Assembly: GCA_963753345.1 (NCBI GenBank)
Contig: CAVWBU010000019.1
Coordinates: forward strand, 86,645-150,644
Origin: an uncultured Fibrobacterota bacterium
GTDB taxonomy: Bacteria > Fibrobacterota > Chitinivibrionia > Chitinivibrionales > FEN-1185
Reading direction: 5' to 3'
DNA: 64,000 nucleotides
Positions 2,860-58,645 of this stretch are shown here, piece after piece (the first letter of the stretch is position 1; each line of letters starts with the position of its first letter). The translations under genes and the position numbers were made by a program. A model generated the notes under the pieces. That model did no database searches. It saw nothing but the letters and a program-made list of their open reading frames with translations, and was not told the origin of the DNA.

Positions 2860-3035
2860 GGGGAAGGATCTCCCTCGCTGCGAACCGGCGTGCTGCTCTT
2901 ATTCATTGCTCATTTTAATCGCGCGCCGGTCCTCCGCTACCCCCTCCTGGGTAGCCCCCAAGTTGGGCCTGCTGCATGAAACAAACACCTGTGCGGGGGC
3001 ACCCACGAGCAGTAGTTGCACTGAAGAATTAATCT
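2860..3035 (+). repeat. diverged copy of intergenic repeat family 2 (GGGGAAGGATCTCCCTCGCTG ... CCGCTACCCCCTCCTGGGTAGCC ... GGCACCCACGAGCAGTAGTTG)
   Basis: Shares its start, the central CCGCTACCCCCTCC(T/A)GGGT(A/G)GCC block and the GGCACCCA(C/A)GAG..AGCAGTTG end with 50395-50580 and 52076-52256. Confidence 0.6.
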
Positions 3036-3276
3036 CTTAATTCATTCACTGGCGTTTTTTAGTAATGCGCCGGAGTGAAGCGACAAAGCAATCTACTCTC
3101 GATGCTATTCATTTTTATTGTTCTCGCCAATTACCGCAAGTTCATTGCAAATGCTACCGCTTTTTCGTGGTGCCCCTGCAGCTGAAGTTACTTTCCTGCA
3201 AATCAACTCTCTAGGGGGCTACCCACGAGGGGGCCAGGGGGGACACTAATATATATATTTTTATAAATAATAATAT

Positions 3277-5674: not shown

Positions 5675-5865
5675 CTGTTGCCGAGCGTTAGGCCGGACTG
5701 GAGGCCGCGCCAGAGCGCGGTGCCGCCCGGACCCGGCCGCGTACTCGCGGCATAGGGACGAGGCGGCCCGAGGGCGAGCCCGAGACCGGAAGGAGGGCCG
5801 ACCCGAGCCTGAGCAACACCATGAGCGAAGTTGAAGGGCGAAGGCGAGGGGAACGCCCATATTCT
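5675..5865 (+). repeat. intergenic repeat family 1, copy A
   Basis: ctgttgccgaGCGTTAGGccGGACTGGAGG ... GGCGGCCCGAGGgCGAgCCCGAGACCGGAAGGAgGGCCGACCC ... GGGGAACGCCCAtATTCT. Aligns by eye to the six other copies. Confidence 0.85.
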
Positions 5866-10916: not shown

Positions 10917-11334
10917 TGTCCGGGCCCCCGACCCTTCGAAAGGCTCAGGGTGACAGGCAATCGTTTTTACTCCGGCAACTAAATATGATTAAACAAAACT
11001 TGTTTCCCAGAGCGAAAAGGATATGATGTTTATCTGTATTCTAATGCCGGAGTAATAATATCAGGGGAATTTACAAAGAGGGCTTCTACCCTTCTGCCCC
11101 GCGCCAGGCAGCATCCCGCCTAACGAGCGCAAACAGTTATTATCATCAGTCAACTACGTTCTCGCGCCAATGGGCATCCGCTGCAAATCAGACAAGATTC
11201 TATTGGGCAAAAATTATAGGGATTCGCAGACGCGGCTGCTCCTGTAGGGTTGTATGCCTTAGTAGTCGTGGTGCTTCGCGAAGTTTATCCCGAGCTCTGA
11301 CGAGGGGCTCGCAATGACACTTTGTTTTATCTTG

Positions 11335-11358
11335 CTGTCAACCGTCAACTTTCAACTC
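11335..11358. repeat. TCAAC short tandem repeat (ctgtcaaccgtcaactttcaactc)
   Basis: Read directly. Same motif family as 7807-7842. Confidence 0.55.
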
Positions 11359-11525
11359 TTCTTCTCGGTGCCTCCGCAGCCGAGGCGTCTTGCTTGCAGA
11401 TGAACTGCCTGGGGGGCCACCCACGAGGGGGACACTTCCCCCGCCTGAGTATTTGCGCCTTGAAGTAAGCAGCTAGAAATCCGCCACCGGCCTCATAGTT
11501 TTTGGGTTATATTTGTGGTTATCCC

Positions 11526-17579: not shown

Positions 17580-17762
17580 TTGGGCGCCCCGCCGCTTTGC
17601 GGCGGCGGCCGTCCTTCCGGTCCACCGCTTCGGGTGCTTCCAAGGGTCGTCGGCCTTGGGCCTCGGGCTGCCTGCCACGAGGGCCCTGCGGGCCGTGGTC
17701 AGGGCGCATCCCGCTGTCGCGGGACCATCTTTCCAGTCCTGCCTGGCGCTTGGCAGCGGGAA
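17580..17762 (-). repeat. intergenic repeat family 1, reverse-orientation copy
   Basis: The reverse complement reads ...CCAGGCAGGACTGGAAAGATGGTCCCGCGACAGCGGGATGC...GACCACGGCCCGCAGGGCCCTCGTGGCAGGC...GACCGGAAGGACGGCC...GCAAAGCGGCGGGGCGCCCAAG. Closest to the copy at 50635-50833. Confidence 0.8.
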
Positions 17763-17861
17763 TACTGCACAATCCACACGCTTGACAAATTGGCAACTTC
17801 TTGTTCTGTTTTTTAAGAATTCAACATGGCGCAAGTATTTCTGCTTGACAGAACATATTTC

Positions 17862-18022
17862 TGTTGCCGCGCGTTAGGTGGACCGCAGGGCGCGCTAGAG
17901 CGCGTTGCCGGCCGACCCGGCCGCTAGGCATAGGGCGGACCGGCAACGAGGCGAACAGCCGAGCCCGGAGGGAGACCGACCCGACCCCGAGCGAAGTGAG
18001 GGGGAGGGGAACGCCAAAATCT
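17862..18022 (+). repeat. intergenic repeat family 1, forward copy (inverted pair with 17580-17762)
   Basis: ctgttgccGCGCGTTAGGtGGACcGcAGG ... GAGCCCGGAGGGAGACCGACCC ... GGGGAACGCCAAAATC. Confidence 0.8.
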
Positions 18023-18044
18023 TTTAGTTAATATATTAATTTGC

Positions 18045-18350
18045 TTAGCAGCAGCTCCCAGAATCACCGCCGCAATCGCAGGTGCCTTTATCAGGGTCGC
18101 CCTTGGTCACAAGGCCGTTGATCATGGCGACCGCGCAACCGACCCCATTTTTTACAGACAGCGCGCCAAAGGAGCAGTTCTGAGAGCAAGCGCCGCATTC
18201 CATGCAGTTGTCAAGCGCCACGATTTGAGCACGATGATCGTGAATTTCAAAAACGCCGTGAGGACAGACTTCCACACAACGTCCGCAACCGGTGCAGTTC
18301 TCTACGGTAAGTTTCAAGGTCGATACGCCTGCTATATACGAATATTTCAT
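18045..18350 (-). CDS. hgcB: mercury-methylation ferredoxin HgcB
   Basis: 101 aa. Two CX2CX2CX3C motifs (CTGCGRCVEVCP, CMECGACSQNCS), the conserved internal GVGCAVA Cys, and a C-terminal vicinal pair ...DCGGDSGSCC. The start codon overlaps the hgcA stop (ATGA). GGAGG lies upstream. Confidence 0.85.
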   Translation of the reverse strand: MKYSYIAGVSTLKLTVENCTGCGRCVEVCPHGVFEIHDHRAQIVALDNCMECGACSQNCSFGALSVKNGVGCAVAMINGLVTKGDPDKGTCDCGGDSGSCC

Positions 18351-19337
18351 ACAATCCTCCAGACGTGAATGATTACCATGATGAGCAATAGTGCGGAAAT
18401 TCCTGCACTCGCGAGGTAGAGCGGCCAGGCGATTTTCAACTCCACTTTAACGCCCGAAGGTGACGTATAGGTGCTGCTGCCAGTGAACAAAAACGCCAGG
18501 TACGAGCTGAACGCGGGCACAGAAACCAGGTTGAATGCTGTCAAGAATGGCGTGCTTCGACAAATTGGCGACAGAAAAATGATTGCAATTGCACCAGTCA
18601 GGCCGGTAACGAATCCCTTGAGCGAAAATGACCGGCCCGGAATGAAAGGCAGCAGCAGCGGCGAAAGGATCGTGCCGGTGAAAAGAGCGGTCAGTCCCGC
18701 TATGACGAGAGGCACAACACCCGATAGCGCTTGACGGTAAATAATACCGGTGCGTGTCATGCCAAATAGAACAGCGGCAAAGAGTAAAAAGAGCCCTACT
18801 TTTTCGAATGCGGGGAATCGTCTCCATGGGAACAAGTTTTGCACGATCAACGATTGAAAACCGCACCCGCCGCATCGCAGGACTCACGGTGCAGTTATTG
18901 TCAAGAAATGCCGGTATATCCGATGCGCGCACCGGGCCGAATTTTACCGAAAAGCCGCCGCAGGCCTTTTGCAGCTTTGATGCGGAAACACCGGATGCGC
19001 TCAGTTGCGGCAGAATGAGAGTTCGGTGTGAAATTATTGATGTAAGATTGCATGCCGAAAGCTGTTTGACTATTTCATTGGTGCAAAATGTGCCTTTTCC
19101 TGCGGCGCACCACACGTTGATGCCCTTTGTGTCAAGCACAAGGATCCAGGCGTTCCTTCCTGTCAATGAACTGCGCAATATGTTGAAGCTGAGACGGTAG
19201 TTGGCAGAAACGAACACCGGATCCGATTCCTTCGGGTCTCCGAGCGCGTAGAGGCCGGGATCAACGCGGTACCGCATGCGGAAGCGGTTGCTGAGGCGGC
19301 ACATGATCGCGCCGAATTTGTCGGCAAACGAAAGCAT
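18347..19337 (-). pseudogene. hgcA: mercury-methylation corrinoid protein HgcA, interrupted by an apparent +1 frame break between the corrinoid and transmembrane domains
   Basis: Frame A (19337 downward): ...[11 protein letters not shown]...PVFVSANYRLSFNILR...LVLDTKGINVWCAAGKGTF...RRVRFSIVDRAKLVPMETI, then non-protein-like sequence. Frame B (A+1, open from 18883) carries the multi-helix membrane domain ...PAFEKVGLFLLFAAVLFG...LLPFIPGRSFSLKGF...FTGSSTYTSPSGV...IIHVWRIV. Removing one base from the G4 run (18812-18815, C4 on the coding strand) or the adjacent T5 run (18800-18804) restores LVPMETIPAFEKVGLFLLF. Confidence 0.85.
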
Positions 19338-38045: not shown

Positions 38046-39026
38046 AGGTGTTGAACCGCGTTTTTCCCGTTGCCCTCCTGCTCCTCGCGACCGCCGCATC
38101 GGCAGGCCCGCTTGCCGGATTCCCTTCCGGTACAGGGGCATTTTTCCCAGAACGGCCAGCCCGTGTCCCGATTCAAGGTCGAGCGGTTTCTCCTCGCACA
38201 TGATTCCAGCGCCGACTTGCCGACCGTTCGCTGGGGTACAAATGGAGCGGCCATGCCGTGGGCGCGCTGCTGTGGTGCGTCGACATAGGCATTGCGGCGT
38301 ACGAGATCAAGGGAATCTATGACGCCATAAAGAACGAAAGCATTCTCGACACCAACGGGATACGGCAGCCGTACTCCAACAGTCTTTACAAATTCACCAT
38401 ACCGCTCACCATAGGGACCGAGGTTGCGTCGTTCATCCAGGAGCGGTTGTACGTCCGCTCGGACTATCTTCTTCACAAGGCGGCGCTTGCGTTCAACGAG
38501 TCTGTTGCAAGAAAAGCTTCGCCGGGCTCGTTGTTTGACCTTCGTATTGACAAATCGGGATTCGGCTCGTACCGGCAGGGCGGCCTCACGTTCGGCGATC
38601 CGGTGCTCGACGGCATTCTCCTGGGAGCAGCCGGCATCAGCGGCGCGCGCCGCCTGGTCGTGGGTGCTCAAGGAAACCGGCATCCAGGTCGGCTCTTGGG
38701 GCGGGATGTATGTCGGACTTGCCCTGTTTTCGTACCTTGAGGAAATGCAGGGCGACACGACCCTTGCCATCGACAAAAGGGCGCGGGCTGCGAACCTGAC
38801 CATCGGCGTGAGCCTCATTGCGGGCAGCATTGTCTGCGCGATTGTTTCGTCGGTGATAAGAAACAAGGGGATCGAGAAGTACAACGAGGCGATGGCAATG
38901 CGGCCCGCGGCCGCGGTGCAGTCGTCGCCGCCGCAGAAGGCAGTGCCTCTACCGGATTCTTCCGGATCAGGCATTTCGGAGTTGCCGAAGAAGACGTTGA
39001 CCGATACCGCTTCGTCAGGAAAATAG
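38042..39026 (+). pseudogene. disrupted exported/membrane protein of unknown function
   Basis: The ATG at 38042 overlaps the upstream stop (ATGA) and gives signal peptide MKVLNRVFPVALLLLATAASAG. Protein-like sequence alternates between frame 2 and frame 0: FSQNGQPVSRFKVERFLLAHDSS (frame 0), GALLWCVDIGIAAYEIKGIYDAIKNES...LGAAGISGA (frame 2), AAWSWVLKETGIQVGSWGGMYVGLALFSYLEEMQ...IAGSIVCAIVSSVIRNKG (frame 0). Frame 2 has a TGA near 38199. Confidence 0.5.
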
Positions 39027-43565: not shown

Positions 43566-43730
43566 CTGGGCGTTACCTTCGCCTTCGTCAAGACTCAGGC
43601 TCAGGTCGGTCTCCCTCCGGGCTCGGCCGTTCGGCCTCGTTGCCGCCTGCCACAAGGGCCCTTCGGGCCGTGGTCAGGCGACAATGCGCTCTGGCGCACC
43701 CTCCGGTCCACCTAACGCAAAAGTCAAGGG
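43566..43730 (-). repeat. intergenic repeat family 1, reverse-orientation copy
   Basis: The reverse complement reads TTGACttttGCGTTAGGtGGACcGGAGGgtgcgccagagcgca...GACCACGGCCCGAAGGGCCCTTGTGGCAGGCGGC...GAGCCCGGAGGGAGACCGACC...GGTAACGCCCAG. Confidence 0.8.
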
Positions 43731-46235: not shown

Positions 46236-46280
46236 ATTTCCCACATTCGAGAAGGTTCTTTTCAAGTGCGGCAATCGATC

Positions 46281-46460
46281 CTCTGCCCGCGCGTTAGGCA
46301 GGACTGGAGGTCCCGCCATAGCGGGATGCCGCCCGGACGCGGCCCTGTGGGCCATAGCGCCGTGGCGGCCCGAGGCCGAAGGCCGAGACCGGAAGGACGG
46401 CCGACCCTTTGTAGAGACGCACGGCCGTGCGTCTCTACAAAGGGGAACGCCCAGATTCTC
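46281..46460 (+). repeat. intergenic repeat family 1 copy with a 38-nt perfect palindrome cassette
   Basis: ctctgcccGCGCGTTAGGCAGGACTGGAGG ... GGCGGCCCGAGGCCGAAGGCCGAGACCGGAAGGACGGCCGACC-[cctttgtagagacgcacgg/ccgtgcgtctctacaaagg, 46406-46443]-GGAACGCCCAGATTCT. Confidence 0.85.
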
Positions 46461-46469
46461 TATTTATAT

Positions 46470-50394: not shown

Positions 50395-50580
50395 GGGGGG
50401 AGGTATCCCCCTCGCTCCGGCCTCCTCGGCCTTCGGCCTGCGGTGTCCTGCGCTACCCCCTCCAGGGTAGCCGCCATGACAAAGCAGATGCGAGACCACG
50501 CATTGTTGTGGCGGCACCCAAGGAGAGCAGTTGTAAAAGTAGAATAGGTGAAGACGTTGAAAAGTAGAAAATGCAGAGAA
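50395..50580 (+). repeat. intergenic repeat family 2 copy plus GTTGA-like tail
   Basis: GGGGGGAGGTATCCCCCTCGCTCCGGCCTCCTCGGCCTTCGGCCTGCGGTGTCCTGCGCTACCCCCTCCAGGGTAGCCGCCATGACAAAGCAG...GCATTGTTGTGGCGGCACCCAAGGAGAGCAGTTG... Nearly collinear with 52076-52256. Confidence 0.85.
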
Positions 50581-50634
50581 CAAGTCCTGGCCGATTTATT
50601 GCAGAATTCCGGATTGGTGCGAAAGACAAGCGTG

Positions 50635-50833
50635 TTGACTGAAAAAATTCCGTTGCCGCGCGTTAGGCAGGACTGGAAAAATGGTCCCGCTTGAGGCGGG
50701 ATGCCGGCCTGACCACGCCCGAAGGGCCCTCGTGGCAGGCGGCCCGAGGCCGGAGGCCGAGACCGAAAGGACGGCCGACCCCCAGGTAGCATTGCACAGC
50801 CGTGCGATGCTACCTGGGGGAACGCCCAATTCT
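50635..50833 (+). repeat. intergenic repeat family 1 copy
   Basis: TTGACTgaaaaaattccgttgccGCGCGTTAGGCAGGACTGGAAAAATGGTCCCGCttgaGGCGGGATGCC...GGCGGCCCGAGGCCGGAGGCCGAGACCGAAAGGACGGCCGACC-[hairpin cccccaggtagcat...atgctacctggggg, 50779-50820]-AACGCCCAATTCT. Confidence 0.85.
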
Positions 50834-52075: not shown

Positions 52076-52256
52076 GGGCGGGGGAGGTATCCCCCTCGCT
52101 CCGGCCTCCTCGGCCTGTGGCCTGCGGCGTCCTCCGCTACCCCCTCCTGGGTGGCCGCCTTGACAAAGCAGCTACGAGACCGTGCATTGTTGTGGCGGCA
52201 CCCACGAGGAGCAGTTGAAAGGTTGAAACGTTGAATAGTTGAAGAGTTTGAAATCA
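52076..52256 (+). repeat. intergenic repeat family 2 copy plus GTTGAA tandem tail
   Basis: GGGCGGGGGAGGTATCCCCCTCGCTCCGGCCTCCTCGGCCTGTGGCCTGCGGCGTCCTCCGCTACCCCCTCCTGGGTGGCCGCCTTGACAAAGCAG...GGCACCCACGAGGAGCAGTTGAAAGGTTGAAACGTTGAATAGTTGAAGAGTTTGAAA. Confidence 0.85.
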
Positions 52257-52308
52257 GGACATGCGGATATTGATCTTATTGCGGATGCCAATTGGCGCGA
52301 GAACGTAG

Positions 52309-52510
52309 TTGACTGATGATTATAACTGTTTGCGCGCGTTAGGGGCGACCGGAGGCCGCGCCAGAGCGTGGTGCCGCCCGGACCCGCCTTTTGTAGAGAC
52401 GCAGCGGCGCTGCGTCTCGCCGAAGGGAATAGGGCCGTGGCGGCCGGAGGCCGAAGGCCGAGACCGCAGGGAGGGCCGACCCCGCAAAGCGGCGGGAGCG
52501 CCCAGTCTTT
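52309..52510 (+). repeat. intergenic repeat family 1 copy
   Basis: TTGACTgatgattataactgtttGCGCGCGTTAGGggcGACcGGAGGCCGCGCCAGAGCGTGGTGCCGCCCGGACCC-[ttttgtagagacgcagcggcgctgcgtctc]-...GGCGGCCGGAGGCCGAAGGCCGAGACCGCAGGGAGGGCCGACCCCGCAAAGCGGCGGGAGCGCCCAGTC. Confidence 0.85.
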
Positions 52511-57110: not shown

Positions 57111-57815
57111 ATGAATTTCCTCGACCACCTTGAAGAACTCCGGGGCCGGCTCATAAGAAGTATCGTAGCCGTTTTCATATTTGCCGTGCCGTGCTTCATC
57201 CTGTGGCGCAGGATCCTTACGTTGTTGATGGTCTATCCCCTCCGATTTGCAAACCCGAAACCCCACATCATCTTCACCGCTCCGGCCGAGGCGGTCATGC
57301 TCAGCATGAAGATCGCGCTCGTGGGCGGCCTTGTCGTGTCGATCCCGTATGTGTTCTACCAGATCTGGGCGTTTGTTTCGCCCGGGCTGTACGGCAAGGA
57401 AAAGAAGGTGGTGCTGCCCGTCGTCATTTCGTCTTCGTTTTCCTTTTTCCTCGGGCTCACATTCGCCTACCTGGCCATTCCGCTCCTGCTCAAGGTGCTC
57501 ACCAGGTTCGGCGCCGGCATCATCGAGCCGTATTTCAAGGCAAGCGAATACATCTCCTTTCTTATCAAGATGGGACTCGCGTGCGGCATCATCTTCGAGA
57601 TGCCCGTGGTCTCGTGGTTCCTCACGCGGATAGGCCTCCTCACCCCGAAATTCCTGGTTAGCAAGCTGCGCCACGCCATCGTCATCATCTTCATCGTCGC
57701 CGCGGTCATCACCCCGCCCGACGTGCTGTCGCAGTTTTTTCTCGCCGTGCCGCTGCTTGTTATCTACGGCGTGAGCATCCTCGTATCGTACCTGACGTGG
57801 GAGCGCCCCAAATGA
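57111..57815 (+). CDS. tatC: twin-arginine translocase subunit TatC
   Basis: The ATG at 57111 gives MNFLDHLEELRGRLIRS. Six hydrophobic helices. Confidence 0.9.
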   Translation: MNFLDHLEELRGRLIRSIVAVFIFAVPCFILWRRILTLLMVYPLRFANPKPHIIFTAPAEAVMLSMKIALVGGLVVSIPYVFYQIWAFVSPGLYGKEKKVVLPVVISSSFSFFLGLTFAYLAIPLLLKVLTRFGAGIIEPYFKASEYISFLIKMGLACGIIFEMPVVSWFLTRIGLLTPKFLVSKLRHAIVIIFIVAAVITPPDVLSQFFLAVPLLVIYGVSILVSYLTWERPK

Positions 57816-58645
57816 ACATGGGACTTGACTTTTCGGAAATTCTCGTCATCATGGTCCTCATCCTGATCTTCTTCGGGTCCAAGGAGATCCCGAACATCGT
57901 GCGGCAGGCCGGAAAGTTCGTGGGCCAGATCCGCCTGTATACCGAAAAGGTGCGACGGGAAATCAACGAGATAAGCAACCTCAACCAGCCCATGCCGACC
58001 CACGACCAGGAAGTGCAGAAGAAAAAGGAGACCATACGCGAGACCTATATCGCGCGGCGCACAACGCTGTCCGCCGAGGAGCGTGCGGCCAAGTCGGCAA
58101 CGATCTGGGAAAACCTGAAAAAGGAGCCCGGCTTTGCAAAGGCGAAATCGGTGCTGGTGTACGTGGAGGCCGGGGCCGAGGTCGCCCTGAGGCCCGCTAT
58201 CCGGGAAATGTTCGCTTCCGGAAAGCGCGTGCTCCTGCCATACACCAACGAAGATTCCACCATGGGTGTGGGCGAGATCGCCAACCTCGAAAAAGATATT
58301 ACCCTCACCGGCATGGGCGTGTACGAGCCGGTGCGCGAAACGTGGAACAATTTTTTCAAGACCGACATCCAGTTCGTGATATGCCCCGGCGTGGCGTTCG
58401 ACGTCCATGGCGGCAGGCTCGGCAGGGGCCGGGGCTGCTACGACCGGTTCTGCAAGGAATTCAAGGGCAGGGTCCCGGTGTACGGCGTAGCTTTTGACTG
58501 CCAGATTATGGGACCCGACGAACGCCTGCCGTTCGCCTACCACGATATTGTTATGGACCAGGTGATCACCGAAAACGGCATTCTCATCGCGCCCCCGCAG
58601 GAGCCCGCGCCTCCGGTGGCCCCTCCGCTGCAGCCCGCGGGATAG
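57812..58645 (+). CDS. TatA/B-like N-terminal helix fused in frame to 5-formyltetrahydrofolate cyclo-ligase
   Basis: The ATG overlaps the tatC stop (ATGA). Residues ~3-55 are GLDFSEILVIMVLILIFFGSKEIPNIVRQAGKFVGQIRLYTEKVRREINE (TatA/B pattern). The remainder is IRETYIARRTTLSAEER...SVLVYVEAGAEV...GKRVLLPYT...YEP...FVICPGVAFDVHGGRLGRGRGCYDRF (5-FCL/MTHFS pattern). Confidence 0.75.
   Translation: MNMGLDFSEILVIMVLILIFFGSKEIPNIVRQAGKFVGQIRLYTEKVRREINEISNLNQPMPTHDQEVQKKKETIRETYIARRTTLSAEERAAKSATIWENLKKEPGFAKAKSVLVYVEAGAEVALRPAIREMFASGKRVLLPYTNEDSTMGVGEIANLEKDITLTGMGVYEPVRETWNNFFKTDIQFVICPGVAFDVHGGRLGRGRGCYDRFCKEFKGRVPVYGVAFDCQIMGPDERLPFAYHDIVMDQVITENGILIAPPQEPAPPVAPPLQPAG

Follow-up and report, generated by a model that had tools for sequence, protein, structure and literature searches.

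The mercury-methylation gene hgcA carries one extra base in the deposited sequence of a Fibrobacterota-like contig, where its reading frame is broken between the corrinoid-binding domain and the membrane domain. The break is probably an artefact of a consensus made from mixed strains, and the gene itself is probably intact. We infer the consensus-calling cause and the mixed-strain source sample from what is observed at the locus: three single-nucleotide indels, their absence in relatives, a haplotype mosaic, and the coincidence of the indels with its switch points. The window referred to throughout is the whole stretch of DNA analyzed, 64,000 nucleotides long; the features discussed are listed by window position in Table 1.

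Reading frames of the hgcA locus

As deposited, the hgcA locus consists of three frame segments. The initial annotation had described a +1 break between the corrinoid and membrane domains, and this description stands, since the NCBIfam profile for HgcA is matched partly in frame A and partly in frame A+1. Frame A runs through GINVWCAAGKGTF, the cap helix with the cobalt-ligating Cys (residues 72-84 of the frame-A ORF), which contains the N(V/I)WCA(A/G)GK motif. Its protein-like part ends with ...RRVRFSIVDRAKLVPMETI, and ~110-121 codons without coding signal follow, in agreement with the ~115 non-protein-like codons counted earlier. Frame A+1, confirmed to be open from 18883 and to encode the membrane domain, reads PAFEKVGLFLLFAAVLFG...IIHVWRIV and continues to the TGA overlapping the hgcB ATG. 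The window state at the break is ATTCCCCGCA, which includes a C4 run at 18812-18815 on the coding strand of hgcA. A hydropathy scan places the break 5 residues ahead of the first of five hydrophobic helices, so the domain boundary had been located correctly.

The deposited fragments score 260.3 and 88.7 bits on NF040863, both below the cut-off of 275, and the corrinoid domain and the C-terminal multi-helix domain share one polypeptide only after repair. Deletion of one C gives a continuous junction, LVPMETIPAFEKVGLF, and a repaired protein of 329 aa that scores 364.8 bits. A 285-aa database protein, P0056, is identical to the truncated hgcA ORF of the window, junk tail included, and is thus the source contig's own gene call; a look-up of P0056 on contigs gave no record.

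The neighboring hgcB is 87-90% identical to its relatives and lies in one frame. Its product scores 112.3 bits on NF040864 (cut-off, 99), contains CTGCGRCVEVC and CMECGACSQNC, and ends in ...GSCC. An ATGA at 18347-18350 combines the stop of hgcA with the start of hgcB; both this coupling and the integrity of hgcB had been recognized in the initial annotation.

Table 1. Positions of features in the 64,000-nucleotide window
Feature	Position	Strand	Remarks
hgcA locus, by the bounds of its relatives	18347..19399	-	ATG 19399-19397, TGA 18349-18347; alignment with L001-L004 and L170
Frame-A ORF of hgcA	18447..19337	-	296 aa, from ATG 19337
Corrinoid-binding (CdhD-like) domain of HgcA, frame A	18816..19337	-	Pfam PF03599, E 6e-13; NF040863 positions 8-190
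HgcA cap-helix motif NVWCAAGK	19095-19118	-	Frame A
hgcA frame break	18812..18818	-	ATT-CCCC-GCA, read as ACG-A-TT-CCCC-GCA
Out-of-frame tail of the frame-A ORF	18447..18811	-	Coding score, summed along the ORF, is highest 121 codons ahead of the stop
HgcA membrane domain, frame A+1	18347..18811	-	Five hydrophobic segments (hydropathy scan); NF040863 positions 186-321
1-nt deficit, hgcA codon 5	19385..19386	-	Window AATAG-CAGCCC; L170 AATAGACAGCCC; L001 without the whole 6-nt block
hgcB	18045..18350	-	Intact; two CX2CX2CX3C motifs, C-terminal CC; ATGA overlap with hgcA stop
acr3 arsenite efflux gene	19261..20442	-	TIGR00832, 427 bits; no profile match beyond aa 359 of 414
CcdA-like protein gene	20471-21172	-	Intact; conserved synteny
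214-aa protein gene	21199-21840	-	Intact; conserved synteny
LMWPc arsenate reductase	21843-22298	-	Intact; conserved synteny
ArsR	22300-22683	-	Intact; conserved synteny
Upstream ars-type genes, whole stretch	20471..22683	-	Conserved synteny, all intact
Beta-helix (Pel9A-like) gene	29541-30942 (gene 30942-29604)	-	Homologues match in alternating frames
Gene with two frame switches	38067-39008	+	Homologues in frames +3, +2, +3; switches near 38205 and 38622
Intergenic repeat copies	17607-17982, 43604-43718, 46249-46464, 50396-50833, 52077-52386, 2929-3233, 5682-5813, 11114-11431

The break site in intact relatives

Eight close relatives were compared as DNA or protein. A protein search with the repaired HgcA returned 7945 homologues, the closest being P0001 (97% identity), P0002 and P0003 (89%), and P0004-P0008 (80-83%), and the close ones are all uninterrupted at the break site. 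In the comparison with intact relatives (L001-L004, L170, P0001-P0008), no relative shares the break. At the site, the intact alleles read ACG ATT CCC GCA in L002-L004, ACG ATC CCC GCG in L001, and ACG TTC CCC GCA in L170 and L171, and the junction of the HgcA relatives reads LVPMETIPA[F/L/S]xK[V/A/L]GLF. The earlier proposal of a one-base deletion in either the C4 run or an A5 run (18800-18804, coding strand of hgcA) holds in its first half. Repair in the A5 run is ruled out, since all relatives read IPA[F/L/S]xK; their junction places the repair in the C run or the adjacent T.

Searched as an exact pattern with either 3 or 4 C's, the window junction had no match in JGI metagenomes, and a 133-aa peptide across the junction, used as a protein query, yielded nothing but fragments of the membrane domain. 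Among these, P0145 was considered as a split-gene counterpart and rejected, since it begins at a contig edge; the other membrane-domain fragments, which start at an internal Met on contigs of 1.1-1.3 kb, are probably likewise not split genes. Exact look-ups of the repaired Acr3 and HgcA, with several start variants, in a collection of 15 billion proteins found none, and an intact copy of exactly the window haplotype was thus not found. A full-text literature search for split or frameshifted hgcA gave no relevant report.

The break could in principle be functional, either through a +1 slip on CCC-C that would give full-length HgcA or through a split into two polypeptides that would assemble; we regard this as scarcely credible. 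On CCC-C, the P-site tRNA-Pro could re-pair perfectly in the +1 frame, and the motif is slip prone. The slip-compatible CCC-C at the break has a GGAG 6 nt upstream of the CCC, but 45 other in-frame CCC-C sites are present in ordinary genes of the window, and CGC, which follows in the 0 frame, is the most frequent Arg codon here (21.8 per 1000), so that the A site offers neither a stop nor a rare codon for stalling. Frame A+1 does hold TTG, GTG, and ATG codons downstream of 18883, yet the sole ATG of the membrane ORF would remove most of the first helix, and there is no convincing independent start. The site is not conserved among orthologues, the break being found in none of the eight close relatives or the remaining scored homologues, and a functional break would leave the N-terminal hgcA and acr3 indels described below unexplained. 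Programmed +1 frameshifting, the explanation that the initial annotation had ranked last, is thus unsupported. The site resembles the prfB type in its slip-compatible P-site codon and its upstream GGAG; it differs in having neither a stop nor a rare codon in the A site, in a spacing of 6 nt rather than 3 nt, and in being conserved in no orthologue.

Two further indels and a haplotype mosaic

Three 1-nt indels lie within 600 nt, at 18812-18818 (+1), 19385/19386 (-1), and 19418/19419 (+1), and all three are absent from the eight close relatives. The relatives start hgcA at ATG 19399, 62 nt upstream of ATG 19337, with a product beginning MPNN or MPDN and a conserved AAGGA 10 nt before the ATG. 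With one base lacking at 19385/19386, this ATG does not share the reading frame of the corrinoid domain in the window. The third indel is an extra A near the 3' end of acr3, at 19418/19419, where six relatives read TTC-AGC/AAG-AAAGG; as a result, the normal stop (TAA 19389-19391) is missed and acr3 acquires a junk tail of ~48-51 codons that runs into hgcA. In the relatives, acr3 and hgcA overlap by 14-17 nt. The break as described in the initial annotation is accurate in all details, but the ATG 19399 start, the 19385/19386 deficit, and the acr3 indel had escaped it.

The nearest syntenic relative of the window is L170 (ENA assembly ERZ25039473, contig_190766), in which arsR, arsC, a 214-aa gene, a CcdA-like gene, acr3, hgcA, and hgcB follow in the same order as in the window. 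Its Acr3 (351 aa), HgcA (350 aa), and HgcB are all intact. An independent Logan assembly of run ERR11748453 (L171) equals L170 exactly over 3925 nt. Aligned with window 24351-18045, L170 is 96.96% identical, and the alignment contains only three gaps, each of 1 nt and each at one of the three indels. At 94 substitution sites the window matches exactly one of L001 and L170, and these informative sites divide the window hgcA region into alternating L001-like and L170-like tracts. Both haplotypes of this mosaic are known in intact form, one as L001 and the other as L170/L171.

All three indels coincide with switches between these two haplotypes. The window turns from L170-like to L001-like within 4 nt (19421-19417), and the acr3 insertion falls in this interval; the alleles here are CAAG and CAGC, and the window CAAGC is the union of both. 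The N-terminal hgcA deficit lies inside an L170-type 6-nt block, GACAGC, which is absent in L001; the window keeps 5 of its 6 bases between L001-like flanks. The mid-hgcA insertion falls at a single A/T difference, with A-TCCCCG in L001, T-TCCCCG in L170, and both bases, A-T-TCCCCG (ATTCCCCG), in the window. It borders a 60-nt L170-like tract, which takes in the linker GCATTC..AAAGTAGGGCTCTTTTTACTCTTTGCC. By a rough estimate based on the switch interval (4 of 1361 nt) and the indel block (6 of 1361 nt), the chance that three random positions would all fall at such places is below 1e-4, even allowing for post hoc choice. The reading of each indel as both alleles in tandem was made after the data had been seen, and a 1-nt insertion in low-complexity sequence can be described in several ways.

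Within hgcB, the window alone carries nine clustered substitutions at 18138-18162, in positions at which L001 and L170 are the same; this cluster suggests a tract from a third haplotype.

These observations point to a mixed-strain consensus as the probable origin of the break. The sample would have contained at least two closely related strains, each with its own intact acr3-hgcA-hgcB allele. Where adjacent substitutions or a short in-frame indel distinguish the alleles, the alignment of reads to the draft may record the difference as an insertion paired with a deletion; if the consensus takes up just one of these, it would come out one base too long or too short. A consensus step of this kind could yield all three ±1 errors, at 19418/19, 19385/86, and 18812-18. 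Recombination in register keeps sequence length, whereas a consensus of mixed reads can change it when adjacent substitutions are written as an insertion and a deletion of which one alone is accepted. New k-mers cannot arise in a pure de Bruijn graph assembly of short reads, and if the contig were of this kind the reads themselves would have to contain the hybrid sequence; this point counts against an artefact. If the break is a mixed-strain artefact, as we consider probable, the real gene would be a normal single-ORF hgcA of ~350 aa whose translation is coupled to that of hgcB, with the pair closing an ars-type operon.

Other damage on the contig and comparison with known systems

A codon-score scan of the window flagged hgcA and acr3, which served as positive controls, and two further loci. 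The first, a beta-helix (Pel9A-like) gene, is intact and encodes 530 aa in two Logan assemblies that are 97% identical (L172 and L173); relative to these, the window has indels of +1, +1, +2, and -1 at about 30174, 30044, 29983, and 29541. In the 700 nt that hold the first three of these indels, there are five substitutions relative to L172, all synonymous in the intact frame. The second, at 38067-39008, has its middle segment in a different frame, as hgcA does. L167, a contig of the same ENA assembly as L170, shares the first three beta-helix indels; it differs from the window by 3-9% in the beta-helix gene and by only 0.1% in the adjacent gene. These three indels may have been passed on by descent, or both contigs may go back to one draft or read pool. 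In a hexapeptide-repeat gene at 32087, the window has T3 where L167 has T2 (products of 258 and 219 aa, respectively), which shows that length discrepancies between assemblies of the same strain occur.

Gap-free matches of the window extend over 6319 nt to L168 (99.2%), 1323 nt to L169 (100%), and 946 nt to L085 (99.5%), and the 14 genes syntenic with L002 and L004 (window 11.5-22.3 kb) are single-frame except hgcA. A uniformly error-prone assembly is therefore rejected: with 8.6 kb gapless elsewhere, the errors are local to a few strain-variable genes of an otherwise clean contig. The products of all four broken genes are found in this contig only and recur in no independent assembly, whereas six intact neighbors (five near hgcA and a TauE-like gene) were tested and all have exact copies in Logan assemblies of other runs. 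By exact protein or DNA matches, runs SRR28042086 and ERR11596056 contain the strain of the window; SRR18214623 contains the L001/L168 strain and ERR11748453 the L170 strain.

TatA/TatC, DUF1697, DUF1848, and half-length TauE genes were considered as additional frameshifts and rejected, being complete, ordinary genes; the 126-aa TauE is present in L172 too. Directly after tatA and tatC, the stretch 57662-58645 (+) joins a TatA/B-like N-terminal segment (Pfam positions 3-31 of 53) and a complete 5-formyltetrahydrofolate cyclo-ligase domain in one frame. Diverged intergenic repeats (~75-88% identical, 70-400 nt) occur in the window (Table 1) and also in the relatives' loci, and the Logan contigs L001 and L168 end within the repeat copy 3' of hgcB.

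The initial annotation had named a homopolymer sequencing or assembly error first among its explanations. An error remains the favored cause, but not as a simple miscall, the break being one of three ±1 indels at haplotype switches. That a C3 was read as C4 by plain random error, unrelated to strain mixing, we judge very unlikely. The extra base can be placed in the C run, and the T3/T2 difference at 32087 arose between nearly identical sequences; however, two of the three indels lie outside homopolymers, all three lie at haplotype switches, and three indels in 600 nt compare with none in the 8.6 kb aligned to independent contigs.

Genuine frameshifts would mean a freshly inactivated hgcA (-1 at codon 5 and +1 before the membrane domain) together with an acr3 tail indel, in an organism that would not methylate mercury; we consider this unlikely. 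The deposited sequence taken at face value says so, as does P0056, the source's own call of the truncated ORF, and hgcAB appears to be dispensable and variable in this population, judging from flanking sequences: L175 carries an acr3 99.3% identical to that of the window, unrelated DNA from window 19402 onward (L175:1040-1231), and no hgcA, and in L001 hgcAB follows unrelated DNA (L001:1-357), with homology beginning at window 19437. A population polymorphism at the break, also listed in the initial annotation, is possible. The beta-helix indels common to L167 and the window indicate that some indels may be heritable, and the gap-free remainder of the window argues against a generally poor assembly. 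Against genuine loss, every indel lies at a haplotype switch, which in-register recombination would not give, and no contig but this one carries the four broken products. A true loss would also require that two or three indels accumulated in succession with almost no neutral decay, hgcB and its coupling to hgcA being intact, and the beta-helix gene, with four indels and only synonymous substitutions, repeats this implausible pattern.

Lineage-specific changes, polarized with L002 and L004 as outgroups, bear on the same question, although the counts are small and the power is low. In hgcA, 5 synonymous and 3 non-synonymous changes fall on the window lineage, and in hgcB 4 and 2; the intact L001 hgcA is similar, with 10 and 4. 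The excess of non-synonymous changes, stops, and larger deletions that would mark a decaying pseudogene was not found, again at low power. The window hgcA substitutions still look selected, with no sign of decay, on counts too small to decide alone.

If the three indels were real, which we doubt, a just-inactivated hgcA would stand beside an intact hgcB in a population that also has intact and absent hgcAB. The locus would then be a natural snapshot of mercury methylation being lost, perhaps not completely, since a low rate of +1 slippage on CCC-C might still supply some full-length HgcA. Knowledge of how HgcAB works is unchanged whether the break is real or an artefact; a real break would be only a strain-level pseudogene. 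The practical consequence concerns hgcA surveys of metagenome-assembled genomes, in which a split gene (260 and 89 bits against 275) leads to a call of non-methylator or gene loss. If the break is an artefact, as we think probable, frame-broken hgcA calls should be checked against reads and related alleles before they are interpreted.

The three indels resemble the mixed-strain consensus or polishing errors of metagenome contigs, which are ±1 changes in strain-variable stretches, placed at switches, with bases of both alleles present and the rest of the sequence clean. The closest genome in a species-representative set is a Fibrobacteraceae metagenome-assembled genome (74% identity), and the window lineage is Fibrobacterota-like. 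Genes at ~18000-32000, among them hgcAB, the ars-type genes, and a methyltransferase gene, have a third-position GC of ~0.5-0.6, compared with 0.7-0.83 in the flanks, which may be the mark of an acquired segment.

The window proteins resemble the HgcA/HgcB pair of Pseudodesulfovibrio mercurii ND132 and of families NF040863 and NF040864: HgcA has the NVWCAAGK motif, a CdhD-like corrinoid domain, and five C-terminal hydrophobic helices, and the adjacent HgcB is a 2x[4Fe-4S] ferredoxin with a C-terminal CC. Unlike the HgcA family, in which no member seen here is split, the window HgcA is deposited in three frame segments. The locus is an ordinary hgcAB pair closing an ars-type cluster, an arrangement already described: neighborhoods of acr3, arsC, and arsR with hgcAB were reported by McDaniel et al. 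2020 (PMC7438021), and a link between ArsR and hgcAB was reported in ND132 (bioRxiv 10.1101/2022.10.17.512643). The order in the window (arsR, LMWPc arsC, the 214-aa gene, the CcdA-like gene, acr3, hgcA, and hgcB, on one strand) matches the neighborhoods of PMC7438021 with no substantial difference, and the locus is a Fibrobacterota-type version of the ars-hgcAB neighborhood.
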